A stretch of 64,000 bases of DNA. Origin: a virus. The stretch lies in the IMG/VR virus record IMGVR_UViG_3300009182_000002, positions 1 to 64,000 of that record. One strand, written 5' to 3'. The notes below the pieces were generated by a model. That model was not told the DNA's origin. It did not search any database and worked only from the letters and a program-made list of their open reading frames with translations. The translations under genes and the position numbers were made by a program. Positions 22,856 through 51,255 of this stretch are shown in pieces (the stretch's first letter is position 1; each line of letters begins with the position of its first letter).

Positions 22856-23620
22856 TCAGAGAACGGTGAAGCCGTACTTGGCACCTAGTGCAACGAGGCT
22901 TTTGCGGCCCGGAGCACCGTCTGCGGCGCTTCCGGTGTAGCCCAACTTGCGTTGCCACGCGGCGTACGCAGCCTGCGTTTTGGGGCCGAATGCACCATCA
23001 GCGGGACCGGGGTTGAGACCAGCCGCGATGAGCGCGTTCTGGACGATCTTGACCTCAGAGTTCTTTGCTCCGGGGTGGACGTCAACCAACTGAACAACCG
23101 GCTTCTTGGGCACAACCGGAGGCGGAGTCGGCTTGGGAACCGGCGCAGGCGCGGGAGTCTTCGAGTACTGCGGCCAGAGACCCCACCAGTGAACAAAACC
23201 TGCCTCACTGTCGGCGCTGTACTGAACAACCCAACTGCTGGGGTAACCGGACCAATCAAATTGATACCCGGTTGAAGTTGCTCGAAGACCCCAATCAAGG
23301 AAATACGTGCCGTGCTTCGACAGGTGGTTGTAGGTGTAGTCAAAGTTGTAGTCAGGATTGAGCATCAACGACATGTCTTTGTCGGCACCGTAAATTGACC
23401 TAATAGTTGATAGGTGACGATTGTTAATTTGCCAGACACCTGTGTCGAAATAGCGAGGACCTTCGTGAGCCCAGTCACCAAACGGAGCGCCAGACGGGTA
23501 CAAGTTGCTTGGGACGCCACCGCTTTCCCTCATGCCGAGGGACCAGAGGATGCGGAGGGCGGGCATCGGAACCTTCTTAGCAACGAGGAAATCGTGGAGC
23601 CATTGCGGTCCTGAACTCAT
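22856..23620 (-). CDS. endolysin: lysozyme/transglycosylase-like plus peptidoglycan-binding domain
   Basis: RESGG..DTGVWQIN; DGAFGPKTQAAYAAWQ. Confidence 0.8.
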   Translation of the reverse strand: MSSGPQWLHDFLVAKKVPMPALRILWSLGMRESGGVPSNLYPSGAPFGDWAHEGPRYFDTGVWQINNRHLSTIRSIYGADKDMSLMLNPDYNFDYTYNHLSKHGTYFLDWGLRATSTGYQFDWSGYPSSWVVQYSADSEAGFVHWWGLWPQYSKTPAPAPVPKPTPPPVVPKKPVVQLVDVHPGAKNSEVKIVQNALIAAGLNPGPADGAFGPKTQAAYAAWQRKLGYTGSAADGAPGRKSLVALGAKYGFTVL

Positions 23621-23955
23621 TTCAATCTCCTTGCAGATCTCTTCTCAGCAGCCTGATCTCGCATGCGCTGGAGGCTGTTGACGATGGGAGCAACCTCGCC
23701 GTCGTTGAACCCCGGTGCATCGGGGTGGTCGATGAGGTGGTTTACGCGCTGCGCCACGCGAGTGGGGCTCATGCCGTAACGGTTCAGGCCTTCCGCTTCA
23801 CGAGGACCGCTGTAACGAGATGGGTACTTCCTGCCCTGCATCTCGTAGGTCTCTCCTGACTGGTACTGCTTGTACCACCACTTGAGCAACTCAGCGTCAT
23901 CCGAATTGAACGCAGGACGTTCGTTGGCCCTGTCCTCAGGGGGATTACCGGCCAT
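23617..23955 (-). CDS. DUF3263-like protein with N-terminal MAGNPPEDR tag
   Basis: WW..GPRE..YGMSPTRVAQRVNHLIDHPDA..PIVNSLQRMR resembles DUF3263; start at a TGATG overlap. Confidence 0.7.
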   Translation of the reverse strand: MAGNPPEDRANERPAFNSDDAELLKWWYKQYQSGETYEMQGRKYPSRYSGPREAEGLNRYGMSPTRVAQRVNHLIDHPDAPGFNDGEVAPIVNSLQRMRDQAAEKRSARRLK

Positions 23956-24260
23956 CAGCAGTCCCAAGCACGCAGCGATTTGTTGATCCGCGAGTCAGGA
24001 TCGTTCGCGGTCTTGGAGGAGGTGTTGTGCTCCTTCATGCCCTCCATGCGGGCGCAGAAGGACTTGCGTCGGGCGGCGGACTTCTTGCTCTTGGACGCCT
24101 GCTCCTTCTTCACCGGGGGCTTGAGGTCGCTGCCGGGGTGCTGGCGCTCGTAAGACTCTCGGCCCTTCTCGTTCAGACCGCCCTCGGGGTCCTTGCCCTC
24201 AGAACGTGACCACGCGGCGGTGCGGTGCTTGCCACGGTCCTCGGGAGGGTTACCCGCCAC
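23955..24260 (-). CDS. DUF6321-like basic protein with N-terminal MAGNPPEDR tag
   Basis: AWSRSEGKDPEGGLNEKGR..RRKSFCARM..DPDSRINKSLRAWDC; GTG start at 24260. Confidence 0.75.
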   Translation of the reverse strand: MAGNPPEDRGKHRTAAWSRSEGKDPEGGLNEKGRESYERQHPGSDLKPPVKKEQASKSKKSAARRKSFCARMEGMKEHNTSSKTANDPDSRINKSLRAWDC

Positions 24261-24262
24261 GA

Positions 24263-24367
24263 CTACTTCTTCTTTGAAGCGCGAGCGGCCTTGCAGGTCG
24301 CACAAGTACACTTGCACCCCTTCTGCGGGGCACCCTTCTTGCACTTGCATCCACAGGAAGCACACAT
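24263..24367 (-). CDS. 34 aa Cys-rich metallothionein-like peptide
   Basis: MCASCGCKCKKGAPQKGCKCTCATCKAARASKKK, GAGGAG RBS; below the ORF-track length cutoff. Confidence 0.7.
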   Translation of the reverse strand: MCASCGCKCKKGAPQKGCKCTCATCKAARASKKK

Positions 24368-24368
24368 G

Positions 24369-24530
24369 TCATTTACTCCTCTTCTTCTTGGCGTTCATGT
24401 TGTCAACGAGGTTCGGGTAGGGACGACCGGCCTTCTTGGCGGCAGCCTTGGCCTTCGCCTTCTGCTCGGGGGTCAGGGGAGTGCTCTTCTTCTTAGGGTC
24501 GGGCGTATCCCACACCTTTTTAGCGGTCAT
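24369..24530 (-). CDS. small basic phage protein
   Basis: MTAKKVWDTPDPKKKSTPLTPEQKAKAKAAAKKAGRPYPNLVDNMNAKKKRSK; below cutoff; ATGA overlap. Confidence 0.75.
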   Translation of the reverse strand: MTAKKVWDTPDPKKKSTPLTPEQKAKAKAAAKKAGRPYPNLVDNMNAKKKRSK

Positions 24531-24727
24531 TTCTTCTTGCCCTTCGAGTGGTAGTTCTTGGTTGCCTTGACGCCCTGCTCGACGGTTTTGGACCCCGCCT
24601 TGTCAGTCAGGTTGATCACGTCCCACTTCCCGCCTTTCTTGCCTACGTGATCGACGTAGACGTCCCCATCTTTCTTGAAAACGCGGTGTTTCTCTCCGTC
24701 AACTGTGAACTGTCGCGAGCGATCCAT
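24527..24727 (-). CDS. small basic protein
   Basis: 66 aa, AAGGAG RBS, starts MDRSRQF. Confidence 0.7.
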   Translation of the reverse strand: MDRSRQFTVDGEKHRVFKKDGDVYVDHVGKKGGKWDVINLTDKAGSKTVEQGVKATKNYHSKGKKK

Positions 24728-24730
24728 AGG

Positions 24731-24889
24731 TCAGTGCTCCTTTGAGTCGCTAATTGCGTTCCGGTTCTGAGAGGAACGATCACGGTTCTTCTTGGTACGA
24801 CGGTCGTAGAAGATAGGCGCGTGCTGGTTAACCTTGGGACCAGTCCCTGTGCCCTTTACGAGATTGTCGTCAGGCTTTTTCTTGGCCAT
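24731..24889 (-). CDS. small basic protein
   Basis: MAKKKPDDNL..DRRTKKNRDRS; start at the internal ATG. Confidence 0.6.
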   Translation of the reverse strand: MAKKKPDDNLVKGTGTGPKVNQHAPIFYDRRTKKNRDRSSQNRNAISDSKEH

Positions 24890-24896
24890 GACTGAC

Positions 24897-25517
24897 TCAG
24901 GGGGTGGGGCTCGGCGGCGTTGGGGCCGAGGGCTTCTTCGCAGGAGTCTTCTTGGCAGGAGCAGCCTTGACAGGAGGCTGGAAGCGAAGGTTGACGCCAT
25001 CGGCGGTGTGCTCAAAGGACTCAACGCCAGCCTCACGCAGTCCCGGAGCAATCTTTGCCGCCGTACGCATCTGGCTCTTGTTTAGGTTTGAGTTGATCTT
25101 CGCCTGCTCGGTGGTGTGCAAATGCGCCTGATCAGCAGATGCAGTGGCGTGAAGGTGCGCCTGATCCGTCGCCGCCGTGTCGTGTGCGTGCATCTGGTCG
25201 AGGCGATCACTTGCGTGCTGGTTCATCTGGTCGGCCCGCGCGGTCTCTCGAACGTGGCCTGCCTGAGCCGCTTGCTCGCCCAACTGATGCTCCAACATCA
25301 TGTTGCCTCGGTACATCATGTTGTGCTGTCCGAGGTACTCAAGTTGCGCTCCGTACGCGCCCTTTTGGTACTCAAGGTAGCGACTCAGGGCGCGCTTGCT
25401 GGGGATGCGGCCAAAGCCGCCAGCGTTCCCGTTGTTGCCGTTGCCGCGATTACCTTCCAAACGGCCAATGAAATACGCGCCAAGAGCGTTGGCACCAGCC
25501 TGTTGTTTCTGCGTCAT
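24897..25517 (-). CDS. His-rich repeat protein
   Basis: leaderless ATG at 25517; 11 aa DQxHxH repeats; PAKK tail. Confidence 0.7.
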   Translation of the reverse strand: MTQKQQAGANALGAYFIGRLEGNRGNGNNGNAGGFGRIPSKRALSRYLEYQKGAYGAQLEYLGQHNMMYRGNMMLEHQLGEQAAQAGHVRETARADQMNQHASDRLDQMHAHDTAATDQAHLHATASADQAHLHTTEQAKINSNLNKSQMRTAAKIAPGLREAGVESFEHTADGVNLRFQPPVKAAPAKKTPAKKPSAPTPPSPTP

Positions 25518-25555
25518 ATCACAAGGGTGCAGCACTAGCCGCAGTTCGTCCGGGC

Positions 25556-25816
25556 TTACTTAGCCCGGTGCTCGTTCTCCTTGGCAACATTCTTTCCATG
25601 TTGCAAAGGCTGGAGATTTCGCATCGAGTCGTTGCTCTTGTTGTTGTCCTTGTGGTCCACATCAGTATCCCGCGACAACTTCCCGTGCTTGTCCTCGTAG
25701 TCCTTGCGCGCCTTGTTAACGGACGTGGTGGAACCATCGGCATGGCGGATCGCGTAGATAGGGCGACCACCGTTTTGCTTGCTGCCCTTGTACGGGCCGT
25801 ACACCTTGTCAGCCAT
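25556..25816 (-). CDS. HNH endonuclease-like protein
   Basis: DVDHKDNNKSNDSMRNLQPL..N. Confidence 0.75.
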   Translation of the reverse strand: MADKVYGPYKGSKQNGGRPIYAIRHADGSTTSVNKARKDYEDKHGKLSRDTDVDHKDNNKSNDSMRNLQPLQHGKNVAKENEHRAK

Positions 25817-26003
25817 CGCTGGGTACCTCCGGTAAGGCCCCTTGCTCAAGAAGAGGCTGCTCGTACGCGGTGTAGTGGTGGCGACAGAAAATAAGTTCCA
25901 AGTCGTTTGACATCCACACTCGCCGCTTTGCCGCTGCCCCGCATCGGTCGCACCTGTCGTGCGCTGTCAAGGGAGTGATCTTTCGACTCGTCGCGGTAGG
26001 CAT
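25809..26003 (-). CDS. actinobacterial small zinc-finger protein (DUF7455-like)
   Basis: LTAHDRCDRCGAAA..LIFCRHH. Confidence 0.75.
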   Translation of the reverse strand: MPTATSRKITPLTAHDRCDRCGAAAKRRVWMSNDLELIFCRHHYTAYEQPLLEQGALPEVPSDG

Positions 26004-26156
26004 AACAACATGCTGCCTTGCAGCAAGTGCAACTTCAGTGTGAAGCACTCTCGTGGGAGTGAATCTCCACCATGTCGTCGTACACCAGAACGTAAGGGTG
26101 AGGAGTGCTGTAACCATCGGACTTCAGAAGTTTCCAGAAGACGATTCTGGGACCGG

Positions 26157-26594
26157 TCACTTGACGCTCGCCCGCAACTGCCAGACCCACTTCTCGTGCT
26201 GGTCGATTCGTTCGGCGATGAAGTTGGCGATGCCCTGCTCGTCCGCTGCGTTGGCAACCTTGAACACGTTCTTGAGTCGAGTCACGAGGAACTCGTTAGC
26301 CGCTAGCAAGTCGTTGGCAAGAGACCGAGCGTCGTTAGCAACGCGGTTGGGCTCTGGCAGCGTCCTCAACTCGACCAAACGCTCAAGCCGGTACGGCGCG
26401 TAGTCACCCAACTTCCGGATGTTCTCGGCCAGCGGGTCGATGCTTTCGTAGATGTCGGTGTAGATCGTCTCGAACAGCGCGTGGTACTGCGCGAAGTCCG
26501 GACCCTCAACGTTCCAGTGGTACCCGTGAGCCCTGAGGTAGGCCGAAACGACGTCCGCGAATAGTGACTTCAACTCGCTCGTCAGGTCGCTCAC
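26157..26594 (-). CDS. dps: Dps / DNA-protecting ferritin-like protein
   Basis: HGYHWNVEGPDFAQYHALFE..DPLAENIR..HEKWVWQL. Confidence 0.92.
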   Translation of the reverse strand: MSDLTSELKSLFADVVSAYLRAHGYHWNVEGPDFAQYHALFETIYTDIYESIDPLAENIRKLGDYAPYRLERLVELRTLPEPNRVANDARSLANDLLAANEFLVTRLKNVFKVANAADEQGIANFIAERIDQHEKWVWQLRASVK

Positions 26595-27217
26595 TTCTGC
26601 GCCTTCCTAGACGCCATCTCCTCCATCGCGGAGGGAACGTCGATCTCATCAATGTTCTTGGCGTCGAACACCGCCCGCTCTCCGCGCTTGTCAGCGGCCA
26701 CAACAGCGTCATCTCGATTGCCGTAGACACTGGAGAAGTCGAGAACCGCCTGAGGCTGACCGGCGTTCTCGCCTTCCTTAGGCGTCTCGTTCCATCCCCC
26801 AGCAAATCCTCCGGGCCATGGCCGACCGGTCGTGGTACGTCCGGCACGGCGCTCGATATTGCGCCCCTCTGAACTGAGGATGTGGGCCAATGCGTGGTTG
26901 GTATTGAACTGGGCTTGGTTGTTATTCGGGTTGATTGGAATAACCGTCTCCGGAACTCGCTTCCCAGTGTGAGGGTCAGCAGCGCCTCCAACGCCGTACC
27001 AAGTCTCGTTTCCGACTTCCTCAGGATTGTTGCCCGGCTCAGGCCTCATCGTGATGCCGCCCTGACGGACACCCTCCTCAAAGGTCTTTGCGTGATTGAC
27101 GTAACTGTCCATCACCGCTGGGTCGTACGACTTCTGCAACGGAGAGTCGATGTGAGTGTGCATCAGCGCATGGAGCAGTGTGCCTGCAAGAGGATGATGG
27201 TGTGTGGTATCGGCCAT
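26591..27217 (-). CDS. hypothetical protein
   Basis: start MADTT; GGW..VLDFS..ERAVFD. Confidence 0.65.
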   Translation of the reverse strand: MADTTHHHPLAGTLLHALMHTHIDSPLQKSYDPAVMDSYVNHAKTFEEGVRQGGITMRPEPGNNPEEVGNETWYGVGGAADPHTGKRVPETVIPINPNNNQAQFNTNHALAHILSSEGRNIERRAGRTTTGRPWPGGFAGGWNETPKEGENAGQPQAVLDFSSVYGNRDDAVVAADKRGERAVFDAKNIDEIDVPSAMEEMASRKAQK

Positions 27218-27267
27218 GCGTCTATCGTCGCGTCTTGACACCCACACAGTGTGCTAAAGTGCCAGCC

Positions 27268-27519
27268 ATGGAGACCATTACCTTCGTAGCACACCCGCAC
27301 CCCAAGACCGACAAGACCGTGTGGTTCGGCGTCTGCCGCACCTGCGGAACGATGGACCCCGTCGATGGGACGCTGCTTGGCGCTGGGGACGACAGCAACA
27401 ACCCTCTGAAGAACCACTGGGCCGAGACCCACATCTGCAAGAAGACCCCGGACTACTTCGCGCTCAGCGAGTACGGCGACATCAACGAGTACTACGGGCT
27501 TGACCTAGAGTCCCTGTAG
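27268..27519 (+). CDS. isolated plus-strand hypothetical (CxxC) protein
   Basis: leaderless ATG 7 nt after TGCTAAAGT; high GC3; own terminator. Confidence 0.7.
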   Translation: METITFVAHPHPKTDKTVWFGVCRTCGTMDPVDGTLLGAGDDSNNPLKNHWAETHICKKTPDYFALSEYGDINEYYGLDLESL

Positions 27520-27530
27520 TACCTGACAAC

Positions 27531-27567
27531 GACAAAGCCCCCGGCAATGCCGGGGGCTTCGTCTTTT
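27531..27567. terminator. bidirectional terminator
   Basis: gacaaagcccccggc-aat-gccgggggcttcgtc followed by TTTT, between converging genes. Confidence 0.8.
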
Positions 27568-27577
27568 GGACCGAGTA

Positions 27578-28027
27578 TCAGACAGGGCGAACGAGGATGG
27601 TGGCCGAGAGGGCCGAGCCAGCCACGGTGCTACCGATCTGATCCACCTTGAGACCGATGGTCTGACCGGTGGTGAAGGTGCCGAGCACGTTGGCGTTGGG
27701 GAACGAGTTGGCAGCGTAGTAGTTGATACCCGAGGTCTGGTTCGACGGGGTCGAGGTGCTGGTGGCCGAGTTGGTGATCTTCAGAGTGCTCACGGTGCCA
27801 GCGGTGGCACCAGCGGTGAGGGTCAACTTGTTAGCAGTGGCGCTGATCTGCGAGGTACCTGCAACCTGCGTGTTGATGAGCAGGTCTGCACCAGTGTTGC
27901 CGGTACCGAGGGAGGCCGACACGGCCACGATCTCACCTGCGAAGGGCAGCGGAGTGCTGGTGAACGCAGACGAGGTAGTAAGAGCGCCCGAGATGGTCAC
28001 GGGGATGGCGACGACATTGCCGTACAT
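27578..28027 (-). CDS. beta-sandwich virion (decoration-like) protein
   Basis: start MYGNVV; similar to 11518-11955; own promoter at 28070-28097. Confidence 0.65.
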   Translation of the reverse strand: MYGNVVAIPVTISGALTTSSAFTSTPLPFAGEIVAVSASLGTGNTGADLLINTQVAGTSQISATANKLTLTAGATAGTVSTLKITNSATSTSTPSNQTSGINYYAANSFPNANVLGTFTTGQTIGLKVDQIGSTVAGSALSATILVRPV

Positions 28028-28095
28028 AAAACCTTCTTCCGGAAGTTTGACGGGATCTCCGTCAACCCAAGGATGGCTGTAAAGCAACCTTTTCG

Positions 28096-28287
28096 TCAGG
28101 GCGTAATGGGAGGAGAGATCTCTGTACCCAAGACGTCGGGATGAGTCTGGACGACCTTCGCCCACATGACTGCTTCGTAGGCGGTCTCGAATCCGAGGCC
28201 AACGTTGATGTCGATGTCTTGTGCAGTTATGAACTCAGGCACATCTGCGCCGGATCGAAGCACCGGTTTCACGTAATAGACGGTCAT
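28096..28287 (-). CDS. hypothetical protein
   Basis: 63 aa, GAAAGGA RBS. Confidence 0.55.
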   Translation of the reverse strand: MTVYYVKPVLRSGADVPEFITAQDIDINVGLGFETAYEAVMWAKVVQTHPDVLGTEISPPITP

Positions 28288-28306
28288 AAGAATTCCTTTC
28301 GTAAGG

Positions 28307-33831: not shown

Positions 33832-35280
33832 TTGACAACTGGACTGCCCACATTCGCCGCGCTGATTCGCAGCGCGCCGGGTCCTGACAACCGCTGGTGC
33901 GAGGTCCTCATCGTGAGGTCCTTCGACACCTTCTCACCGCTGCACGTTCCCGGCGTTGGACCAGCGCCGCTGTTCTACATCCGGAACACCGGGGGCGGTC
34001 GGGGACCGTCCAACGCATGGGTCGCCGTCACCGACGTTCCTGCTCAGGAGCGCGCTGCATGGTGCGGCAATGACCCTCTCGTCGTGCCGCTCACCACGCA
34101 CGACGTGACCGCAGTTGCTAGCGCTCGCAACTTGCCGCCCAAGTCGCTGCTCACGCGGCTCCAGTCGCGCATCGACCGCGTGCCGCTCAATCAAGCCGTT
34201 GGGCTAACCATTGGCAACGTCGTTGACGCTCTGGTGCAGGCCACCGACGTGTTCGCCACGGTCGTGCCTGCTGCTCCCAAGGTCGCCCCGGCTCAGGTCG
34301 TGGTGGCCGCGCCGGTCATTCCTCAGGTGTCGGCCATCCCGGCTCCCGTGCTGACAGTGCCGGTTGCCAGCACGGCACCGGTTGCCAGCGCTGGTCCCGT
34401 GGTCGTGCTTGACGACGACCAGCCCGACTCCGACGACGGCTCCGTCACGGTCGTCGTGCAGGACGGCGCGTGCCGCAAGGCCATCGTCCTGCCGCCGTCG
34501 TTCGCTGACTCGTACATCCACCGTGCGGTGTTCGGAGTCGATGACTTCACGGTGCTGGATGAGGCACGGGCCAAGGGCGACAGCGTCGGGCTGTACGGCC
34601 CCACGGGCTCTGCCAAGACCACCGTTGCCAAGGCTTACGCGGCAGCGCGCGGTCTCCCGTATGTGCAGGTCTCAGGCACCGCGACGATGGAAGAGTCGCG
34701 GATGTTCGGTCGCTGGATCGACCTTGGCCAGTGGCAGGACGGCGTCGTCAGCGAGGTGGTCCGCTACGGCGGTCTACTCATCCTTGACGAGATCAACATG
34801 CTCCCGCCGAACATCAGCGCGAGCCTGTTCCCGCTGCTTCGCGAGCGGGTCCTCACCCTGCACGACAAGGACGGCGAGACCATCACCGCCCACCCGTCGC
34901 TGATCGTCATCGCGACGTGGAACCCGAACTACTCCGGTACGCGCGAACTGAACGCCGCGCTCGCCAACCGGTTCGGGGTGCAGGTTGAGTGGGGCTACGA
35001 CGACCGTGTTGAGAAGGCGCTTGGCATCTGCAACAGCCTTCGCGCTGCTGCTGGTCGCCTTCGTGCCAGCGAGGTCAAGGGCGAGGTCAGCGCCCCCTGC
35101 CCGACCAACGCGCTGGTTGACTTCCAGCACTACGCCGGTCGGCTGGGGCTGGACTTCGCGGTTGGCAACTTCGTCGCCCGGTACCACGACGATGTTGAGC
35201 GCAAGGCCGTGCAGGCCGTGTTCGACACCTTCCGTTCCAGCATCGAAAACGAGTTGGGGCTGGCTCAGGCAACCGTCTGA
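33832..35280 (+). CDS. MoxR/CbbQ/CobS-like AAA+ ATPase
   Basis: GPTGSAKT, LLILDEIN, ATWNPNYSGTRELNAALANRF. Confidence 0.88.
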   Translation: MTTGLPTFAALIRSAPGPDNRWCEVLIVRSFDTFSPLHVPGVGPAPLFYIRNTGGGRGPSNAWVAVTDVPAQERAAWCGNDPLVVPLTTHDVTAVASARNLPPKSLLTRLQSRIDRVPLNQAVGLTIGNVVDALVQATDVFATVVPAAPKVAPAQVVVAAPVIPQVSAIPAPVLTVPVASTAPVASAGPVVVLDDDQPDSDDGSVTVVVQDGACRKAIVLPPSFADSYIHRAVFGVDDFTVLDEARAKGDSVGLYGPTGSAKTTVAKAYAAARGLPYVQVSGTATMEESRMFGRWIDLGQWQDGVVSEVVRYGGLLILDEINMLPPNISASLFPLLRERVLTLHDKDGETITAHPSLIVIATWNPNYSGTRELNAALANRFGVQVEWGYDDRVEKALGICNSLRAAAGRLRASEVKGEVSAPCPTNALVDFQHYAGRLGLDFAVGNFVARYHDDVERKAVQAVFDTFRSSIENELGLAQATV

Positions 35281-35344
35281 GCCAGCACCAGCACCACCTA
35301 GCAAGCCCTACCAACCACTACCAACCTCTAGGAGAGCGATCACC

Positions 35345-36271
35345 TTGGCAATCACTTCACCCCTCACCGCCGACCGCTTGCTTGGCCCCGGCGCTGAACG
35401 TGGCGAGCGGCTCGCACGCCTCGCCGCCATCTTCACCAAGTCCAACAGCATCCTGTCCGGTCAGTCGGTCAAGGTGCGTATTGAGACCAACGACTGGGCT
35501 TGCCCACCGGCCCCGGCATGGTCCGATGGCCAGAACATCTGGTTCAAGGGCAGCGACATTCGTGACGCTGACTTCGACTCCATCGTCAACCTGTACGGTC
35601 TCAACTACCACGAACTGGGCCACATCCTGTGGACACCCCGTCAGTCGCACCCGCTGGCGACTTGGGCTTGGCGCAACCGTCACTGGTCCACGATGAACCT
35701 CTTGGAAGACCAGCGCATCGAAACGGCGATGACCCGCCGCTGGCCTTCGACGGCACCGTGGCTCACCGCGTGCGTCCTGCGCTGGGTGCTGGCCGACCCC
35801 AAGACCCTCAGCACGTCCTACCTGCTGCTGCGTGGTCGTCGCTTCCTCCCGGCTGACGTGCGCGGACTGTCACGTCAGGCCTTCGAGCGTCAGGACCTGC
35901 TCCCTGAGGTTGACCGCATCGTTGACGCCTACCGGGAACTGCGCTTCCCAGAGAAGCCCAACCTGCGCCGCGTATCGGAGCGCAACCTGTACGACCGTGC
36001 TCAGGCGCTGATCACCGACTACAGCGCGCTGATTGCCAGCCTTAACAACCAGCCCACGTCGTCGCCTAACCACGGCAACGACGAGACATCACCGGTAACC
36101 AACGGCTACCCAGCGCCTCACGATCCCAATGAGGCCAACACCGACGACCAGTACGACGACGAGCCCCAGCCCGGTCAGGGTAGCGACGGGGACCAGAACG
36201 ACCAGCACGACGACACCAACGACAGCGGCGCGGGCACCCCGTGCTGCTCCTGCGACGGAGGCAGCCACTGA
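35345..36271 (+). CDS. CobT/vWA-partner N-terminal metallopeptidase-like protein
   Basis: AWSDG, NYHELGHIL, NLLEDQRIE; TTG start after CTAGGAG. Confidence 0.8.
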   Translation: MAITSPLTADRLLGPGAERGERLARLAAIFTKSNSILSGQSVKVRIETNDWACPPAPAWSDGQNIWFKGSDIRDADFDSIVNLYGLNYHELGHILWTPRQSHPLATWAWRNRHWSTMNLLEDQRIETAMTRRWPSTAPWLTACVLRWVLADPKTLSTSYLLLRGRRFLPADVRGLSRQAFERQDLLPEVDRIVDAYRELRFPEKPNLRRVSERNLYDRAQALITDYSALIASLNNQPTSSPNHGNDETSPVTNGYPAPHDPNEANTDDQYDDEPQPGQGSDGDQNDQHDDTNDSGAGTPCCSCDGGSH

Positions 36272-37464
36272 TGAACGACGACACCATGCCCAACACAAGC
36301 GCCTGCTCCTGCGGTTGCCACGGTCCTGCCGCTGGCAACGAGCCTGCCAACGACCAGCCGGGTGGCTCTGGCAACGAGCCGGGTCAGCCCCAGCCCGGCA
36401 ACGAGCCGGGTCGGCCCGGCAACGGCGACCAGCCCGGCGACCAGCCCGGCGAGGGCGAGGGTCAGGGCGAGGGCGACCAGCCCGGTGAGTCCGACGGCGG
36501 CGGCGCGAACGGCGGCGCTGGCTCCGACGGCGAGACCGGGCTGGACGGCGGCGAGGCCAACGGTGCTGGCACCGGGGTTACCAACGCCCCCGACATTGCC
36601 AAGGCCTTGCAAGACGCTGCTAGCAAGGCTCTCGACAACATCACCAACGACGTCGATATCGCTGGCGAGGCCAGCAGCGCTGTCAACGCTGTTGTCAAGG
36701 GCGGCGGTCACGTCCAGATCCTGCGCGACTCCCGCTTCGACACCTTCGCCCCCAGCGACGAGGCTCGCCTCGCTGAGCGCCGCGCGGTGCGGGAGTTCAA
36801 CACCCTCCGCGCAGACGCTGAGGAGGGCTGGGACCGCGCCCGTCCGCAGGGTCGGCTGAACGTCGGTCGCTACATCTCTAGCAACGGGGACCTTGACGTG
36901 GCCTTCGACCAGTGGCGTGACCGCAAGGGTGACGCCTCCGACCTTGAGGTTGTGCTACTGCTGGACGACTCAATGTCCATGGCTTCCTACCGCGTGGTCA
37001 GCGCGGAGGCCATGTGGGTACTCAAGCGTGGCCTTGACGCCATCGGTGCCAACACCACGGTGGTCATGTTCCACTCCGAGTCCCGCGTCCTGTACAAGCC
37101 GACCGACAAGGCTGAGGCGGGTCGCCTCCGCTGCTCAACTGAGAGCGGCGGCACTGACCCCAGCGAGGGCATCGCTCAGGCGGCGCGCATCTTCGCCGGG
37201 AGCCGCAAGGGTCAGAAGGTGCTGATCACCATCACCGATGGCGACTACTGGGGTGAGTCTGTCCCTGCCAACTGCGACTACAACATTGACGACATTGTCA
37301 AGGCCATGACCAACAGCGGCGTCGTCACTGCTCAGGTCCTGTTCAACCACGCGAGCGAGCAGACTCACGGGCACGCGATCAGCACTCAGGTCTCGCAGGT
37401 TGAGGAGATCGCGTCCTTTGCCAAGGAACTTGTCAAGGCTGCTATCAAGTCTCGCCAGCGCTAG
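36271..37464 (+). CDS. von Willebrand factor A domain protein
   Basis: GRLNVGR, LLLDDSMSM (MIDAS), GGTDP, ITITDGD; GGAGG RBS and TGATG coupling. Confidence 0.88.
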   Translation: MNDDTMPNTSACSCGCHGPAAGNEPANDQPGGSGNEPGQPQPGNEPGRPGNGDQPGDQPGEGEGQGEGDQPGESDGGGANGGAGSDGETGLDGGEANGAGTGVTNAPDIAKALQDAASKALDNITNDVDIAGEASSAVNAVVKGGGHVQILRDSRFDTFAPSDEARLAERRAVREFNTLRADAEEGWDRARPQGRLNVGRYISSNGDLDVAFDQWRDRKGDASDLEVVLLLDDSMSMASYRVVSAEAMWVLKRGLDAIGANTTVVMFHSESRVLYKPTDKAEAGRLRCSTESGGTDPSEGIAQAARIFAGSRKGQKVLITITDGDYWGESVPANCDYNIDDIVKAMTNSGVVTAQVLFNHASEQTHGHAISTQVSQVEEIASFAKELVKAAIKSRQR

Positions 37465-43200: not shown

Positions 43201-43227
43201 GACCTGCTGTCAGACAAGGAGTAACGA

Positions 43228-43658: not shown

Positions 43659-45677
43659 TCAATTCAACGGCACCTCACAAGCATCGGTCGTGCAGTAGGC
43701 CTCTCCAACTGCGTCTAGGGCGTTGCCCTTGTAGACGCTGTTTAGATTGATCTTCTTCAACTTCCGCTTCCAAGCGTCGTACTCGTCTTTGCTGATCTGG
43801 GTGTAGGGCTGCTGCGGATAGACCTTGTTACCCATTGGCAAGAACGAGACGGTCTTAAGCCGACCCTCGTACATGTGGAGCACAGTGCCGACATGCTTTG
43901 CCTCTGTCTCAGAGTCGAACGACAGGGTGACGCTGACGCTGTTGTCAGACCAGTATTGCTGGGCCAACGCGGCGAGGTTCGCTTTCTCAAACAGCGACAC
44001 GTCCTTCTCCGCGCGCACGGGAACGCTCTTCACTGGGAAGTAGACCACCGACGTGTTGGAGTCAGTCACAGCGTCTTCCACCGCGTAACCGGCGTCGATG
44101 AACTTGGCGACCATGGGGTCGCTTTTGGCAAACCGGATGGCCCGCAGAACATGCTCGCCACCGGGGGGCCAGTGGACGCCCGGTGTCTCACCCGCGAGGA
44201 TGCTCACCGTTCCCGAGGGTTTGACTGTCGTGGTCTTGATCGACTCACGGACGCAGAGCCACTCCGAGTAGATGGAGTCCCAGCGCTGGACCTCGCCGTA
44301 GCCGGTGTCGAGCCACTCCCTAAGCAACGGGAGTGAGCGGGAGTCCGCGAAGCCTGCGAGTCCCGAGACGCTCGTGCCGATGCGGCGGTTGCGCTGCATG
44401 ATCGCGTTGGTAGTGGGCCAGTGCGTTGGAATGAGAGTCACGGTCTTGGCGTAGAGGTAAGCAAACTTGAGAGTCCTCAAGAAATCCTTGAGGTCGTCAT
44501 GCCTATTGATATACGTCTCTACCAACGTGCAGCACTCGTATGACTCCAACGACTGCTCAGCGCAAGGGTTGTAACCGGCTACGCGATAGTCCTTGTTGTT
44601 AACGGGATCGTTCAAGCGACCGTACTTGCGAGATACATCCAGCCAGATGAAACCCGGCTCACCATTCAAAGCAATGTTCTCAACGAACGGCGAGTAGTCC
44701 ATACCAACGGTTGCTTCCAATGAGTTGTTAGACATCCAACCCCATCCCGGATTGTCTGGGGAGTAGGAGTTTCGTTCGGGGAAGGTTTCCGGATTCTTTA
44801 AATTCACGAAGTCGTTGTCAACGGGCTTGCCAAGAGCGAGTTCGGCAGAGCGACGCACGTTGCCGGAGACCACGCAGACGCCGATCAGGTTGGCGATGTC
44901 AACGATGGTCTTGCTATCAAGAGTCTTGCCAACCATCGGATCGAGAACCGCGCGCAACTTGGTGTGCAGTCGGATCAACGGCTCGGGACCTGCCGCCGTA
45001 CCTCCGAAGGTCTTGATCGGTTCACCCGCAGGACGAATCAATCCGTAGTCGAAGACGTACGTTGGCTGGTTGTTCTTGAGGTATGAGTCCAGCAGCATGC
45101 CGACGCTCTCCACCCAGCCCTCACGGGTGTCGGGGATGACGAAGTCCACCTTGTTGTCAGTGGGGTGGCTGACCTCAATGGCACGGCTCACACCATTTGT
45201 GTCGAAGCCGACCCCGATCCCCAGCATGCTCGCCTCCATGAGGAACAGGAACGGGGCGCTTGGGTTGTTCTTGGTCATGTCAGCGGTAGAGACGAAAGCG
45301 CAGTTCTGGAGCGCGGCGCTGTTGCGTCCCTCCATCACCAACGGAGTGCCCATCATCCACAGACCACGACCGGGAGGCGTCCACTTCAGATTGAAGAGGC
45401 GGTCGAATGCTTCCTGAGCACTGGCCTGCGCTTGGTGCCCGTTCCATGGGAGACGGTTCTCCTTGCAGTGGTCTTTCTGGATGCTGTACATGCCGTTGAT
45501 AACACGTTCGCACACATCGACCCACGTCTCCTTGGAGCCGTCCTCCTTCAGGCGCGAGTACGTTCGCATGAAGGTGATCTCACCAACGCTGTTGCCAGCC
45601 ACGTCGGTGTACCCCCACGGCACAGGCTGGGTTCGGTAGTACGAGACGAAGTCATCCGTCAGTCGAAACGAAAACAA
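43659..45677 (-). CDS. nrdJ: class II (B12-dependent, RTPR-type) ribonucleotide reductase
   Basis: PPGRGLW, LQNCAF, GNVRRSA, NPCAEQ, TTVKPSGT, C-terminal CTTDAC. Confidence 0.93.
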   Translation of the reverse strand: MFSFRLTDDFVSYYRTQPVPWGYTDVAGNSVGEITFMRTYSRLKEDGSKETWVDVCERVINGMYSIQKDHCKENRLPWNGHQAQASAQEAFDRLFNLKWTPPGRGLWMMGTPLVMEGRNSAALQNCAFVSTADMTKNNPSAPFLFLMEASMLGIGVGFDTNGVSRAIEVSHPTDNKVDFVIPDTREGWVESVGMLLDSYLKNNQPTYVFDYGLIRPAGEPIKTFGGTAAGPEPLIRLHTKLRAVLDPMVGKTLDSKTIVDIANLIGVCVVSGNVRRSAELALGKPVDNDFVNLKNPETFPERNSYSPDNPGWGWMSNNSLEATVGMDYSPFVENIALNGEPGFIWLDVSRKYGRLNDPVNNKDYRVAGYNPCAEQSLESYECCTLVETYINRHDDLKDFLRTLKFAYLYAKTVTLIPTHWPTTNAIMQRNRRIGTSVSGLAGFADSRSLPLLREWLDTGYGEVQRWDSIYSEWLCVRESIKTTTVKPSGTVSILAGETPGVHWPPGGEHVLRAIRFAKSDPMVAKFIDAGYAVEDAVTDSNTSVVYFPVKSVPVRAEKDVSLFEKANLAALAQQYWSDNSVSVTLSFDSETEAKHVGTVLHMYEGRLKTVSFLPMGNKVYPQQPYTQISKDEYDAWKRKLKKINLNSVYKGNALDAVGEAYCTTDACEVPLN

Positions 45678-45848: not shown

Positions 45849-47411
45849 CTAACTGCCGATAGATCCATCGATGATTCGGTTGGTCTGCTCGGCGTCCAAA
45901 CCACCGTTGGGAAGATCCCGAAGCGAGGCGGCTCGGTCTCCAAACAACGCACTCAACACCCCACCTGCGGTCTGCCTCTCGACCGTCATACGAACGAACT
46001 CGTTGTTGCTTTCGAGGTCTTTGAGGATCTTTACCAACTTGAAAAGCCGGTCTATTTCTAGACCGGTGTTCGGATCTGGGTATCCGCCGTTCAATTCCTC
46101 GCTGAACCGGGCGAAAGCAACCCTTTGCCCTTGCATTTCAACGATTGCATTGAGGAGAGACCGCAACTGCTCCTTGGTCTTGACCTCCACCGGGAGACCG
46201 AACGCGCACATCGATTCAGGCTTGTAGGCAGGGCAGTTGCTAGCCACGAAACAGGTGTCGCACTGGCGCAGCGACTGCGAGTTCGACTGCATGACCGGCA
46301 CATCGCGGAGGACTTGATTGCCGTTCTCATCGGTGTCAACAATCGTCTTGTACTGAACCCCCAGCACCGGCAAAGTAGCGGTCTCCTCGGGAGTTCGGGG
46401 CTCCGGAAGTTTCCGCATCGAAGCATCCCTGTTGGCAACTACGGGAGGGGGGTTTTCCTGACTTTGGCTTGGTACCCCATTTCCGCTCTTAGCAACTAAG
46501 AAGTCATTGCTAGAGGCGTTGCTAACGAGGTCCGGGTCTGACTTATAAAACAATTGCTCATCAGATTCGGGGACAGACTCCGATCCGAAGTTCTTCTTTC
46601 GCGGGTCTTCCATCTGCATCTCCATCTGTTGGTATGACCAGATCGCCAGTTTGGTGACCTCGTTGGGGTCGTCGTTCACGACCTTTCCGAAGTCAATCCC
46701 GGCCTTCTCGCAGACCGACCGATACCTCATTCGCGCTTGGTCCTTCATCCGCTGTGGGTAGCGAACGAGGCGAGTGCCGTCCCAGACGATGGTCTCGCCA
46801 CGACGCATCGGAGAGAGCCATGACAGCGTGCTGACGGTCTCCCACCGGATGGCTCTCAAGTTGTCTGGCTTGGCGATGGAAAGCCCGTGAAAAGACGTCT
46901 TGTGCTGTATCGCGAGGGCGTTGGTCCTGCTTGCAAGCGTGCTGTCAGACTCCACAGTCTCGTACGGGATGGCGATGTGTGAATACCGATCCGCGAGCGC
47001 GAAGAGAGCCGGGTAGCCCAGCGAGGATTCCCAAATGGGCCAGAACAATTCCTCACCCAACTCGGCCCAGAACAACTCGCGCTGCTCCTTGAGCCACGCA
47101 ACTCCAAGCGGCGGGCAGACCAGTTCGGTCGCTCCGGAGATGCGATCCCCGTTCTGAACTACGAAGTCCTGATACTCGGCGGCGTAGTCTTCCAACTCAG
47201 CAACAGACAAGCCAGCCTTGGCAACCTGCTGCGAACCGGCATCGAGGTAGACGCGCACGTCGTCGGGGAACCGTCCGGCAAACAAGTAAGGCTTGTTCTT
47301 GGGCAGTCCGCGCTTCCACAGTCGAAAGAACGACACTCCGACATCTTTTACGCCCATGTCGGTTAGCAAGATGCGATTGCTCGGGACCTCGGCACCGTCA
47401 AAGACCAGCAT
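45849..47411 (-). CDS. TGT/DpdA-like TIM-barrel fused to a Cys-cluster helical domain
   Basis: VYLDAGS, FHGL, STLSWLSPMRRGET; C-terminal CDTC..C..CAF. Confidence 0.5.
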   Translation of the reverse strand: MLVFDGAEVPSNRILLTDMGVKDVGVSFFRLWKRGLPKNKPYLFAGRFPDDVRVYLDAGSQQVAKAGLSVAELEDYAAEYQDFVVQNGDRISGATELVCPPLGVAWLKEQRELFWAELGEELFWPIWESSLGYPALFALADRYSHIAIPYETVESDSTLASRTNALAIQHKTSFHGLSIAKPDNLRAIRWETVSTLSWLSPMRRGETIVWDGTRLVRYPQRMKDQARMRYRSVCEKAGIDFGKVVNDDPNEVTKLAIWSYQQMEMQMEDPRKKNFGSESVPESDEQLFYKSDPDLVSNASSNDFLVAKSGNGVPSQSQENPPPVVANRDASMRKLPEPRTPEETATLPVLGVQYKTIVDTDENGNQVLRDVPVMQSNSQSLRQCDTCFVASNCPAYKPESMCAFGLPVEVKTKEQLRSLLNAIVEMQGQRVAFARFSEELNGGYPDPNTGLEIDRLFKLVKILKDLESNNEFVRMTVERQTAGGVLSALFGDRAASLRDLPNGGLDAEQTNRIIDGSIGS

Positions 47412-47880
47412 CTACGTCCTCCTGCGTGGTTACTTCCAAAGCAACTTTCTGCCTGCGGTCAATCTCGGCTTGGATGTCGTCCCAAGAACGGCGACCCTTG
47501 TTGCTATCGCGTCTCGATACTGGCGCGGCGAACTGCGGGTGCGCGAACAGCAGCGAGCAGATCCCCTCGGAGACAGCCCAAGCAACGTTGCTTGGATCGC
47601 CATCAACAAAGAAATCGATGCGACCTCGGGATCGTTCAAGCGCGACTTGCCGACGGCGAAGTTCGTTCGAGGTCTCGTCCTCGGCAACTTCCTTGCCAAG
47701 GAGATTGTCATAGATGATGTTGTTGGTACGGAGCCAGTGCTCCGCCTCGGCGATGCTCTTGTTGGCAAGAAGCACGACCGGCCCGATCCGCTTGAGTCCC
47801 TCCAAGAGGGTCTTGCCCTCTCGGATTGGATTTCCGGTCGCTGCCCGAAGTACTCCGTCTATTGCTACGAGTGTGGTCAC
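47398..47880 (-). CDS. HAD-superfamily (PNKP-phosphatase-like) protein
   Basis: VAIDGVL (first Asp absent), FFVDGDP. Confidence 0.65.
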   Translation of the reverse strand: MTTLVAIDGVLRAATGNPIREGKTLLEGLKRIGPVVLLANKSIAEAEHWLRTNNIIYDNLLGKEVAEDETSNELRRRQVALERSRGRIDFFVDGDPSNVAWAVSEGICSLLFAHPQFAAPVSRRDSNKGRRSWDDIQAEIDRRQKVALEVTTQEDVDAGL

Positions 47881-47882
47881 GT

Positions 47883-48818
47883 TTACTGCCTGTAGATCGC
47901 TGCCCTGCGGGTGAGGACATCTGCGGATGGGAGGTCTACGCCGTAGGTCTCTGCCTCGTGTGACTCACGAGCGGACTCGGCGTACTGCTTGATTTGCTTG
48001 AGAGCGCCAACTGCGCCGGACTGCTTTCCTGCTTGCCAACGGTAGTTGTTGAAGTCGGAGTAGCCGCTACCAGTCATGGAAAACGCGATCTTCCTACCGT
48101 GATGAATCTCGTCGTAGAGAGACTCTGCCGCTGAGATGGCGTGCTGGAGTCGAGACTCCGCGTTCACCCGGTACGCAGGGTTGCTAGTTGCTCGTACATC
48201 CGTGAGCGCCTGCGAGTACCGCTTTACCAACTCCGTGGTCGTGTCGTAGTCACGCTGTGACTTCTGCTCCCATGCACGGCTGAACGGGGCGTGGGCAGAT
48301 TGGTCGGGCTCTACGGTCCACTCATCGGCGGTCAGGTTGTACGCGGCGTACGGGTTGATGGCCCGAATGTCGGTAGCGCCGGGGTTTACGTAGAAGGTGA
48401 CCTCGTACCCGTTCCAGTCAGCGGTGTTGGGCATCAAGTTCTCGTTGAAGTCCTCGTTCATCAACTGAGAGATGTCAGTGTCCGAGAACCCCATGAACTC
48501 CATGTTGCACTGACGGAAGATCGGGTAGTCGATGCCAACAAGCACGTCGAGATCCCCGGGAACCCTCGTTGCTGACCATTGGTAAGAGACCCCGGAGCCT
48601 GCGATCCAAGCAACGGTCCACCTCTCCGGGGCAACGTAACTGTGGGCAAGGCTGTTGATAAGCATGTGCAGAAGAGTGTTGCGGACCCATGGGCGAAGAT
48701 GGCTACCCACGAAAAGCCGGGGGTCCAGTTCGCCAGAGGGGTCCGAGAAATACGAGGTTGACGACGGACTAACACTGACCGGCCTACTGGCCTTGGAAAG
48801 TTCATCCGCGTAACTCAT
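47883..48818 (-). CDS. Pol-beta-superfamily nucleotidyltransferase
   Basis: AGSGVSYQW..GDLDVLV..YEVTFYV..YAAYNL. Confidence 0.7.
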   Translation of the reverse strand: MSYADELSKASRPVSVSPSSTSYFSDPSGELDPRLFVGSHLRPWVRNTLLHMLINSLAHSYVAPERWTVAWIAGSGVSYQWSATRVPGDLDVLVGIDYPIFRQCNMEFMGFSDTDISQLMNEDFNENLMPNTADWNGYEVTFYVNPGATDIRAINPYAAYNLTADEWTVEPDQSAHAPFSRAWEQKSQRDYDTTTELVKRYSQALTDVRATSNPAYRVNAESRLQHAISAAESLYDEIHHGRKIAFSMTGSGYSDFNNYRWQAGKQSGAVGALKQIKQYAESARESHEAETYGVDLPSADVLTRRAAIYRQ

Positions 48819-48859
48819 ACCCCCATTCTTTCTGCTGAATGGGTGTACGTCTTGCCCTA

Positions 48860-49093
48860 CTACTCGTCCTCGTCAACCATTCGGGACTTCTTGATAACCC
48901 GACGACGAGGAGAACTCACGCTGGTTGTCTTGGTTGTCTCGTTCTCGGTGATTGGAGCCGGGGGCGATACGAATCCGCATGCCGAGTGAGCGTTTGAGAA
49001 CCGGTGGACCAGCATCCAGACGCCTGAGTTGTTGTCATCGGAGTCCATCATCATCTGGCTCTCGCACATCCCGCAGTGAAGATCTACGTACAT
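48860..49093 (-). CDS. small zinc-binding protein
   Basis: CGMC..HSACG. Confidence 0.6.
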   Translation of the reverse strand: MYVDLHCGMCESQMMMDSDDNNSGVWMLVHRFSNAHSACGFVSPPAPITENETTKTTSVSSPRRRVIKKSRMVDEDE

Positions 49094-49096
49094 CTG

Positions 49097-49360
49097 CTAC
49101 TCCTCGTCCTTCTTGGTCGAGCGGCGCTTGGCAACAGCCTTGGCAACCTTTTCAGCAGGCTTCTCCTCCTGCTGATCTCGCAAATAAGCGCTGGCGTACT
49201 GAGCCGATGCCTGTGCGGCTAGGTCTGCCGATAGGTCAAGCAACGAGCGGCGAACATCGCGCAGAGTGGGCTGCCGCTCGATATCGAGGACGTCGTTGGG
49301 GATATCCATGATCAAAGACGGCGATCCCTCGCTGTCCACAACGACTACGAAAGCGGTCAT
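49097..49360 (-). CDS. hypothetical protein
   Basis: MTAFVVVVD..; start uncertain. Confidence 0.55.
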   Translation of the reverse strand: MTAFVVVVDSEGSPSLIMDIPNDVLDIERQPTLRDVRRSLLDLSADLAAQASAQYASAYLRDQQEEKPAEKVAKAVAKRRSTKKDEE

Positions 49361-49371
49361 GGGTCGGTCGC

Positions 49372-49908
49372 TCACTTGTACAGTCCCTTCTCCTCGCGAG
49401 TCTTGCGCTCGTTGAACACCCGAACAGGGCAGAAGTCGCACAAGTAGACTCGGGTGGCGTTCGACTGGGTCGGGCTATCCAGCCCCGCGTCCTTACGCTC
49501 AACCGCAGTCTGGGGCAGTAGGCGCTTCTTCTCTGCACGGAAGTCTGGGCATTGGCCTTTGGGCCGGTTGTACGCAGCCCAGCAGGCCATCGCGTCCTCA
49601 GCGAACTGCATTTTGGTCTCGTAGAAAGCAGTACCAAACACATCAAGTCCAGAAGACCCCTGATGGATCTGTTCGATGATTGCTTCGCGCATTGTTTTCG
49701 ATTGCCAGTGGATAGCGCCCACGTTGATAAGGAGCCCAACGTGCTCTGAGCCGTGGCGCTCAATTGTCATCTGGAGTAGGACATCTCCCTCGGGTGGACC
49801 CGAATAGGGAGGCAACTCATCAATGGTCTTGCAAGTACGGCAAACCATGAGCCGCACGTACGGCTCTTGCTCCGTGGACTCAGCGAAATTGCCAAGATCA
49901 ATGGTCAT
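49372..49908 (-). CDS. Cys-rich conserved phage protein
   Basis: CRTC..YLCDFCPV; own promoter at 49937-49963. Confidence 0.7.
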   Translation of the reverse strand: MTIDLGNFAESTEQEPYVRLMVCRTCKTIDELPPYSGPPEGDVLLQMTIERHGSEHVGLLINVGAIHWQSKTMREAIIEQIHQGSSGLDVFGTAFYETKMQFAEDAMACWAAYNRPKGQCPDFRAEKKRLLPQTAVERKDAGLDSPTQSNATRVYLCDFCPVRVFNERKTREEKGLYK

Positions 49909-49971
49909 CGTCAGTGCTCCTAGTGGTGTCAGTACGACGCTAACAAGGAGCCGCTGGCCTGTCTCGGTGTA

Positions 49972-50340
49972 CTAACCGCCGGGACGGTAAGAGTTGAACA
50001 TCCCGGTTTGGTTAGGCGATCCGCTACCCATGGCGAAGTTTGAAGATCGGCTTTCGTTGCCTCCGGGCTGCTGCGGAGTCTTCTTCATCATGTCCTTGCC
50101 AGCGTTGCCAAGGCCTTGCTCTCCTGCGCCAGACTCTCCGGCGGAGGCAGCCCTCGAAGCCGCGCTCGTGGCAGCGTTCTTAGCAGCGAACGACTCGGCC
50201 AAACCACCCGCTCCAGCCTCTACTGCCCCAGCAGCACCAGCGGCTTCGGCTGCGCCAGCCGCACCAGCCACTGCACCCGCGCCTTCAACAGCAGCGCCCG
50301 CAGCAAGAACCTCGGGGATTAATGCAAGTGGAGCCATCAC
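49972..50340 (-). CDS. Ala/Gly-rich protein (ejection/pilot-like composition)
   Basis: LAAGAAVEGAGAVAGAAGAAEAAG. Confidence 0.6.
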   Translation of the reverse strand: MMAPLALIPEVLAAGAAVEGAGAVAGAAGAAEAAGAAGAVEAGAGGLAESFAAKNAATSAASRAASAGESGAGEQGLGNAGKDMMKKTPQQPGGNESRSSNFAMGSGSPNQTGMFNSYRPGG

Positions 50341-50693
50341 TGTTCTCCGGGATCGTTAGCGGCACTGGGGCGTCGGGTATAGCCGGGAAGATGAGCAAAT
50401 TGATTCTTGCCAAAGTTGTCAGCGCCAGCACTCTCCCAGCGCCCAGACTTCTCCAAAGCGCCCGCTAGGAAATCGTGAGCGGCATGCGTCCGCAACGTCT
50501 TTCCGTTGATGTCGGCATCTCGGCCTGCCATGGATGCCACGGAGAGCATGTGCCCTTCTCCACGGAACTCAGGCTTCACGAAAACCGTGTGCATGTACCC
50601 CGTGGGGTCAACTCGGACAGAACCAAAGTCGTTGAAGTACATGGCACCGCCGTCGAACTGACGGCTGTGCGTGCGGTGGATGCGCTCGGCCAT
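50337..50693 (-). CDS. GNAT acetyltransferase-like protein
   Basis: HTVFVKPEFRGEGH (acetyl-CoA motif A). Confidence 0.6.
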   Translation of the reverse strand: MAERIHRTHSRQFDGGAMYFNDFGSVRVDPTGYMHTVFVKPEFRGEGHMLSVASMAGRDADINGKTLRTHAAHDFLAGALEKSGRWESAGADNFGKNQFAHLPGYTRRPSAANDPGEQ

Positions 50694-50695
50694 GA

Positions 50696-50908
50696 CTACC
50701 GACCGGGGTTGACCCGCTGAGTTGCCGGGTACTCGCTGTTGACGTAACCCCAGTTGTAGTCAGGGTGCAACGAGGCGCGGTTGGCGTAGACCTCGGAGTC
50801 GCCGCTGGCAGGCTGGACCTCAGTGTCCGGCCTGCGCTTGCGGTACTTACCGTCCGTGGAACCCTCATTGAGGGACTCGTTCTGGCTGCGGCTGATGTTA
50901 ACGGTCAC
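50696..50908 (-). CDS. small hypothetical protein
   Basis: EGSTDGKYRKRRPDTEV. Confidence 0.65.
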   Translation of the reverse strand: MTVNISRSQNESLNEGSTDGKYRKRRPDTEVQPASGDSEVYANRASLHPDYNWGYVNSEYPATQRVNPGR

Positions 50909-51255
50909 TGCTTCTTCCTCTCCTGCTGCTTGACGTATTCGCGGGTACGGATCTGGTCCATGTCGCTCGACATCAAAGGGGTGTACTTGGTGCCCGGAAG
51001 ACGACCCTCCTCATGCGGCATGGTGAACTCCATGCGATGCGGTAGGTACCCGTCACCGGCTGAAGAAAGCCCCGCAGCCAACTCATGGGCTGGGTCATGC
51101 TCCCCGTGCCAGTTTCCAGCCATGGAACCCGCGAATACGACCTTCTGGTGGCCTGTATCGGGATGCCGATAGGTCACGGCGGCTCCGGTGTAGGCGTCCC
51201 CGGGCATGATGGAGCCTCGGTTAGCGGATCGATCCTCAGGCGGGTTACCAGCCAT
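50905..51255 (-). CDS. hypothetical protein with N-terminal MAGNPPEDR tag
   Basis: TAATG coupling; shared N-terminus. Confidence 0.7.
   Translation of the reverse strand: MAGNPPEDRSANRGSIMPGDAYTGAAVTYRHPDTGHQKVVFAGSMAGNWHGEHDPAHELAAGLSSAGDGYLPHRMEFTMPHEEGRLPGTKYTPLMSSDMDQIRTREYVKQQERKKQ

Follow-up and report, generated by a model that had tools for sequence, protein, structure and literature searches.

Why should three unrelated proteins of one virus begin with the same nine residues? The question is raised by the first 64,000 nucleotides (hereafter the window) of the virus record IMGVR_UViG_3300009182_000002, a complete genome that measures 97,729 bp, has direct terminal repeats and contains 58.5% G+C. 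The initial annotation of the window had reported an identical N-terminal tag, MAGNPPEDR, on three proteins with unrelated bodies. Its coordinates are right, all three genes lie on the minus strand, and the minus-strand translations do share the start M/V-AGNPPEDR; a plus-strand reading of the same positions gave nonsense translations and was rejected. Gene 1 (23955->23617) encodes a DUF3263-like protein of 112 residues beginning MAGNPPEDRANER. Gene 2 (24260->23955) encodes a DUF6321 protein of 101 residues beginning (V→M)AGNPPEDRGKHR, with GTG and not ATG as the start codon, and gene 3 (51255->50905) encodes an orphan protein of 116 residues, beginning MAGNPPEDRSANR, whose family we named P3. 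The tag is written ATG GCC GGT AAT CCC CCT GAG GAC AGG (MAGNPPEDR) at 23929..23955, GTG GCG GGT AAC CCT CCC GAG GAC CGT ((M)AGNPPEDR) at 24234..24260, and ATG GCT GGT AAC CCG CCT GAG GAT CGA (MAGNPPEDR) at 51229..51255, all on the minus strand, so that the codons quoted earlier agree with the DNA.

The bodies behind the tag have nothing detectable in common. Gene 1 matches Pfam DUF3263 (PF11662) over residues 47-107 (E=2e-7; 31.2 bits against a gathering cut-off of 22.3) and PHROG phrog_5316, with a weak match to a Fis-family regulator (E=0.013); judging from these matches, its body is probably a small Fis-like helix-turn-helix. Gene 2 matches Pfam DUF6321 (PF19846) over residues 22-99 (E=3.9e-25; 88.7 bits against a cut-off of 28.5). 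Both earlier family assignments therefore hold above the gathering threshold, and both domains begin well after the tag, which lies outside the matched regions. Gene 3 has no match in Pfam or PHROGs. In BLASTP comparisons the three proteins could be aligned only over residues 1-13 to 1-21, and the predicted folds of two bodies differ, so the bodies are unrelated as claimed. When the window and the complete 97,729-bp genome were scanned in six frames, GNPPEDR occurred exactly three times, each immediately 3' of a start codon, and among the N-terminal peptides listed for the genome no other is common to unrelated open reading frames (ORFs). The chance of an identical 8-mer after Met is about 4e-11 per protein pair, and here there are three copies in the genome and five more in relatives. 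Coincidence is excluded as the origin of the common tag.

Scans with degenerate patterns covered viral contigs, metagenomes and species genomes. A search for the tag in related sequences had been proposed as a check, and it produced five further true copies, namely those in the metagenome relatives L001/L011, L013 and L017 and two in L019; the remaining pattern matches were out-of-frame or internal chance matches. Together with the three copies of the window, these give eight independent DNA copies for comparison. Each of codons 2-9 varies synonymously among the eight, and none shows an amino-acid replacement: four Ala codons, four Pro codons, five Arg codons (AGG included) and both of the Gly (of those seen), Asn, Glu and Asp codons are in use. 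The mean pairwise difference among the copies is 5.0 of 24 nucleotides, which corresponds to at least 16 synonymous steps and no non-synonymous step. By our own arithmetic, if about 26% of random changes are synonymous, the probability that all steps would be so by chance is about 4e-10. The bodies of P3 orthologues fall to 44-47% identity with the tag still at 100%. This pattern indicates that the tag is kept as a peptide, and not as DNA, by strong selection, and the earlier claim that selection acts on the peptide is thereby upheld. A DNA- or RNA-level element, such as CCNCC and GAGGA words pairing with or mimicking a Shine-Dalgarno sequence, was rejected because synonymous variants destroy these words (GAA GAT in L017 and in L019_X, one of the two tagged ORFs of L019). 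The conservation of Arg13, also proposed at the outset, applies to the three window copies but not to the relatives, in which L019_X has Arg12 and Gln13, and L017 has Arg15.

If the true starts lay downstream, the tag would not be part of the proteins at all. The start codons argue otherwise, being coupled to upstream stops: the ATG of gene 1 overlaps the stop codon of gene 2 (TGATG), the GTG of gene 2 lies two bases past the TAG stop of a Cys-rich ORF (TAG-TC-GTG), and the ATG of gene 3 overlaps the stop of its upstream gene (TAATG). Public gene calls differ at these loci: in two database entries P3 begins only at Met17, and one entry has gene 2 begin further upstream. The Met17 start is disfavoured because L017 and L019 encode P3 orthologues that lack an internal Met, leaving the tag as their only possible start. 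Of the two overlapping frames upstream of the gene 2 tag, the window and L013 conserve the Cys-rich ORF but not the extension of gene 2; the DUF6321 orthologue of L001 has an ATG start directly after a different upstream gene. These arrangements indicate that the tag is translated. The Cys-rich ORF directly upstream of gene 2 (24263-24367, minus strand) is metallothionein-like, with 9 Cys in 34 residues and a start reading MCASCGCKCKKG; in L013 it continues into the tag codons in another frame.

AlphaFold2 models built with alignments place the tag outside the fold. The P3 model (mean predicted local distance difference test score, pLDDT, of 86) has a confidently folded β-rich body and a C-terminal helix, and its residues 1-10 have a mean pLDDT of 48. 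The DUF6321 model (pLDDT 71) is helical, and residues 1-12 are mostly below 50. According to these models, the tag is a flexible, disordered extension carried by structurally different bodies. The P3 fold gave no convincing match in the PDB, and ESM Atlas gave nothing useful.

Is the tag native to any of these families? For DUF6321 this was rejected, as nearly all close homologues and the cyanophage DUF6321 proteins lack it. We collected the 120 closest DUF6321 homologues, which are 71-89% identical over the domain and in many cases lie on 90-107-kb contigs. As many as 118 of them are untagged, the tagged ones being the window's own protein and P0012, and the untagged proteins begin MA(T/A)KKK… or MAK(S/T)A. 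The DUF6321 domain of T4-like cyanophages forms the C-terminus of longer, untagged proteins encoded beside the terminase genes, and in PHROG profiles it likewise stands at the C-terminus of varied proteins. The DUF6321 domain of the window is 60-69% identical to those of marine T4-like cyanophages (L020-L022 and L040), and it also matches Pelagibacter phage records. That the domain is so well conserved in phages whose hosts belong to different phyla suggests that it binds a universal ligand. We found no paper mentioning DUF6321, and the literature coverage of DUF3263 was uninformative.

The relatives show how the tag moves. L019 is 98% identical to the window upstream of the gene 3 segment and 94% downstream of it. 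Between these flanks, the segment that begins at the start codon of gene 3 and runs nearly to the end of the gene is replaced by two tagged genes in tandem, namely a 75-residue ORF (L019_X) and a P3 allele with 47% amino-acid identity to that of the window. L019_X, which has a coding-like codon-position G+C, is the fourth tagged body. The 60 nucleotides upstream of the tag are 100% identical between L019 and the window, and mismatches start at codon 2. Since the tag itself differs synonymously next to this identical upstream stretch, the incoming L019 cassette brought its own tag, and for the same reason a recombination linker was rejected. In L001, which has 77-82% nucleotide identity to the window, the tagged DUF6321 gene lies upstream of three small genes instead of downstream as in the window, and there is no tagged DUF3263 gene. 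The initial annotation had proposed a portable signal, and the portability stands on four unrelated bodies, on the graft onto DUF6321 and on the movement with swapped cassettes; what the signal may be for is weighed below. The comparisons indicate that the tag is a lineage-specific graft travelling with gene cassettes.

Small genes at 24288-24900 (minus strand), upstream of the lysis cassette, also differ in content and order among the window, L001 and L013. L013 is without the 53-residue and 66-residue genes of this region, and L001 has both after the DUF6321 gene. From this gene content, the region is evidently a hyperplastic accessory region.

The lineage is a rare one, as the searched databases contain only about a dozen tagged sequences, all of them metagenomic and none from a cultured phage. 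Among viral contigs, exact and relaxed tag patterns recovered L001 as the only true relative, and searches for related loci with P3 and DUF3263 proteins found none. Among cultured phages, no P3 homologue and no nucleotide match for the region were found; the tag was not seen in the cultured-phage records examined, which were not scanned for the tag itself. In representative genomes of 185,579 species (GTDB) no host protein with the tag at its N-terminus was found. Host mimicry or prophage origin was rejected, since the exact-tag scan of GTDB returned out-of-frame or internal chance matches only.

Beyond the invariant copies, distant members of the P3 and DUF6321 families carry diverged forms of the tag, for example MAGSPPENRA and MAGPVPENRAG. 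When P3 was used for a profile search, 13 relatives were found. Among them, P0139 starts MAGSPPENRAN, P0138 and P0143 start MTVPPNRA(S/G)D (MTVPPNRAGD in P0143), and P0140, encoded on a 48-kb contig, starts MSDVPQDRAGS; some others have a zinc-ribbon-like N-terminal extension and no tag. Among the DUF6321 proteins, P0144, a member of the 90% cluster that includes P0012, begins with MAGPVPENRAGD. P3 and DUF6321 bodies alike show the Glu-Asn-Arg-Ala and Arg-Ala-Gly-Asp features again, a hint that the tags of different proteins drift together. A viral-contig scan for MAGPVPENR met only unrelated contigs of 71% GC. The P3 family itself (gene 3 and P0132-P0142) has an invariant Y, G-x-W and P-A, and one member contains two copies of the domain.

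What kind of element would be selected in this way? The tag is invariant at all eight residues, is confined to the N-terminus, is disordered and has moved between unrelated bodies, features that argue for a short linear motif with a single partner. We consider it likely that one common partner reads the tag. With slightly less assurance, we favour MAGNPPEDR as a disordered N-terminal short linear motif, a transferable label for addressing or docking that is carried by four or more unrelated small accessory proteins (75-116 residues). The partner would recognize all eight residues at the free N-terminus and thereby keep the tag invariant.

Candidates for the partner were sought in the genome, which has a recognizable head module made up of a portal gene (15675-17381), a scaffold-like gene of 254 residues (14786-15550) and a major capsid protein gene (13708-14739). 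The large terminase is 52-54% identical to that of Streptomyces phage BRock and its kin, and BRock has the same order of portal, unnamed gene and capsid, with no annotated protease. DUF3263 is an actinobacterial family, and the ORF at 60391-60702 is WhiB-like by eye. From DUF3263 and the WhiB-like ORF, the host is most likely an actinobacterium. The lineage is a narrow one of uncultured actinobacterial myophages, probably from fresh water. Genes 1 and 2 are immediately upstream of the lysis genes. Two putative lysin genes lie in tandem at 21944-23620 (minus strand), just downstream of this tagged pair. The lysin at 22856-23620 (minus strand) has PG_binding_1 and a weak SLT match. As for the second (21944-22792), the C-terminal segment of its L001 homologue resembles a peptidoglycan-binding domain, and small putative membrane proteins come next. 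At the genome level, the first ~110 bases are repeated at the end (97622-97729), with identical ORF starts at 16 and 97622, in agreement with the direct terminal repeats of the record, and the octamers GTTGCTAG/CTAGCAAC and CTTGGCAA/TTGCCAAG occur 15-21 times each genome-wide, compared with about 1.3 expected from base composition.

We rank the head-assembly machinery first among possible readers, that is, the scaffold-like protein (14786-15550), the portal or the inner capsid surface. The tagged proteins would then be loaded into proheads and delivered to the cell together with the phage DNA, and the tag would not be removed by a protease. By analogy with known systems, such protease-independent head loading is the destination that we put first, as a tentative choice. 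Equally tentatively, the tag and its drifting variants, x-P-(E)-[DN]-R-A, might constitute a protease-free cargo address that loads fast-changing effectors into an HK97-fold head for injection. The cargo would comprise a DNA binder of the Fis type, two orphan folds and the DUF6321 module, which is widely conserved, and the system, independently evolved and co-evolving with its receptor, would correspond in actinophages to the internal proteins of T-even phages.

The closest precedent is the capsid-targeting sequence of T4, to which the initial annotation had compared the tag. This leader of 10 residues is the only conserved part of diverse, poorly conserved internal proteins (PMC3012670, PMC9026906), is alone sufficient for packaging (PMC9026906, PMC3012670), and acts by binding to the scaffolding core before being cleaved by the prohead protease at L/I-x-E (PMC9026906). 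The analogy holds in its logic, with one conserved short leader, diverse bodies and fast-changing loci. In T4 (IPI, IPII, IPIII and Alt), too, a leader of about 10 residues stands at the extreme N-terminus of otherwise unrelated small proteins, the genes are at separate loci, some adjacent and one distant, and the leader is kept on bodies with little conservation among related phages; cassettes also turn over here much as they do at the T-even internal-protein loci. Membership in the T4 system, on the other hand, does not follow, as AGNPPEDR does not resemble the T4 leader in sequence and contains neither Leu nor Ile nor an L/I-x-E motif, and the genome has no detectable gp21-type (S77) or other known prohead protease gene. 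The head module is also of the BRock type (portal, scaffold-like protein and major capsid protein) and the host most likely an actinobacterium, not an enterobacterium.

In phage P1, DarB has an N-terminal packaging signal of >9 and <=30 residues, which also carries a heterologous reporter into the capsid (PMC9024508). It is like the tag in being an N-terminal segment that acts as a capsid address, as is proposed here, with delivery alongside the DNA, but the signal is longer, is described for one protein, needs other Dar proteins and has no sequence similarity to the tag. Encapsulin cargo-loading peptides are short, disordered and terminal, occur on unrelated enzymes, and dock on the inner face of an HK97-fold shell. 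Unlike the tag, however, they are usually C-terminal and hydrophobic or Gly-rich with a different consensus, and this phage has no encapsulin.

Several observations weigh against an address for the head. Gene 3 lies 27 kb from the other two genes, outside the late module and among genes of replication and nucleotide metabolism, such as those for a class II ribonucleotide reductase (43659-45677) and RecA (61011-62063). No prohead protease gene was found, making the T4 mechanism proper unlikely: Peptidase_S77, S78, ClpP and S49 gave no match at E<=1 in the complete genome, although an unrecognised protease may be encoded, and no protease match was obtained for the gene that separates portal from capsid. 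Untagged DUF6321 proteins are common, and some of the longer cyanophage ones are annotated as 'structural protein'; if DUF6321 is a virion protein, the tag is not generally needed by it. The two database gene calls that begin P3 at Met17 count on the same side, as do the distribution statistics, which are thin because so few tagged sequences (about a dozen) are available.

A docking or processing handle read outside the virion is supported equally by everything that speaks for a peptide with one partner, and we regard such a reader as about as likely as head loading, that is, as possible but doubtful. It could be a host hub protein that anchors several phage effectors, or the tag could be a degron that gives the accessory proteins a common, timed turnover. 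A third form would involve an early-strand operon at 33832-37464 (plus strand), in which a MoxR-type AAA_5 ATPase (E=6e-22) and a vWA protein (E=1e-6) flank an ORF with a HELGH motif. The metal-ion-dependent adhesion site (MIDAS) of vWA domains binds acidic residues of ligand peptides; the vWA protein could thus bind the Glu-Asp pair of the tag, and the HExxH metallopeptidase-like protein could remove the tag. The position of gene 3 outside the late region also agrees better with a reader of this kind. However, the HELGH-motif ORF has no Pfam match (Pfam searches of about 20 further ORFs for a candidate reader were likewise mostly without a match), the tag to our knowledge fits no known degron or hub-binding motif, and the GTDB scan described above gave no host protein with this N-terminus. 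Among the ~35 ORFs scanned, none proved to be a radical-SAM enzyme, though no search aimed at this family was made.

Two further explanations dispense with a partner. Pro-Pro followed by Glu or Asp is a stalling context that depends on elongation factor P (EF-P), and start-proximal stalls affect yield most. Asn-Pro-Pro-Glu at codons 4-7 might therefore stall the ribosome near the start and make output dependent on EF-P or on the state of the cell, with selection acting on the nascent peptide. Free synonymous change and the strict position after the start codon would be accounted for, and in six of the eight copies translation is coupled to that of an upstream gene. However, all eight residues are invariant, and not Pro-Pro-x alone, and the variants replace one Pro (PVPENR and VPQDR) yet keep the [DN]-R-A part. 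Pro-Pro is not avoided in the phage proteins either (66 seen against 58.6 expected), and PPE, PPD, PPG and PPP occur in many other genes, so that Pro-Pro by itself is unremarkable in this phage. We consider this translational effect improbable. Still less credible is a functionless start, either a gene-start module copied with cassettes or an exchange-promoting boundary, that hitch-hikes with its genes. The tagged genes do lie in rapidly rearranging loci, and the L019 breakpoint is at the start codon. But a copied module would be conserved as DNA, and here third positions are near saturation with the peptide invariant; the tag of L019 came in with the cassette and has diverged too far to act as a recombination target; and the tag outlasts 55% body divergence. 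The synonymous/non-synonymous pattern largely refutes this explanation, provided that the eight copies are independent.

Portable terminal address peptides on phage proteins are a known kind of element. Short peptides that can be moved between proteins and direct any of them to one place are rare, and they are useful, as the T4 capsid-targeting sequence, which became a capsid-packing tool, illustrates. If head loading is true, a protease-free tag of nine residues would offer a similar packing handle for hosts related to Streptomyces or Mycobacterium. Automatic gene callers can trim such tags, as happened in the two P3 database entries begun at Met17. Even with a non-capsid reader, four unrelated orphan proteins would have one partner, making their function experimentally approachable. 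The tag would mark orphan phage genes as belonging to one functional set, and the tagged set probably consists of host take-over or anti-defence proteins that are swapped quickly between near-identical phages.

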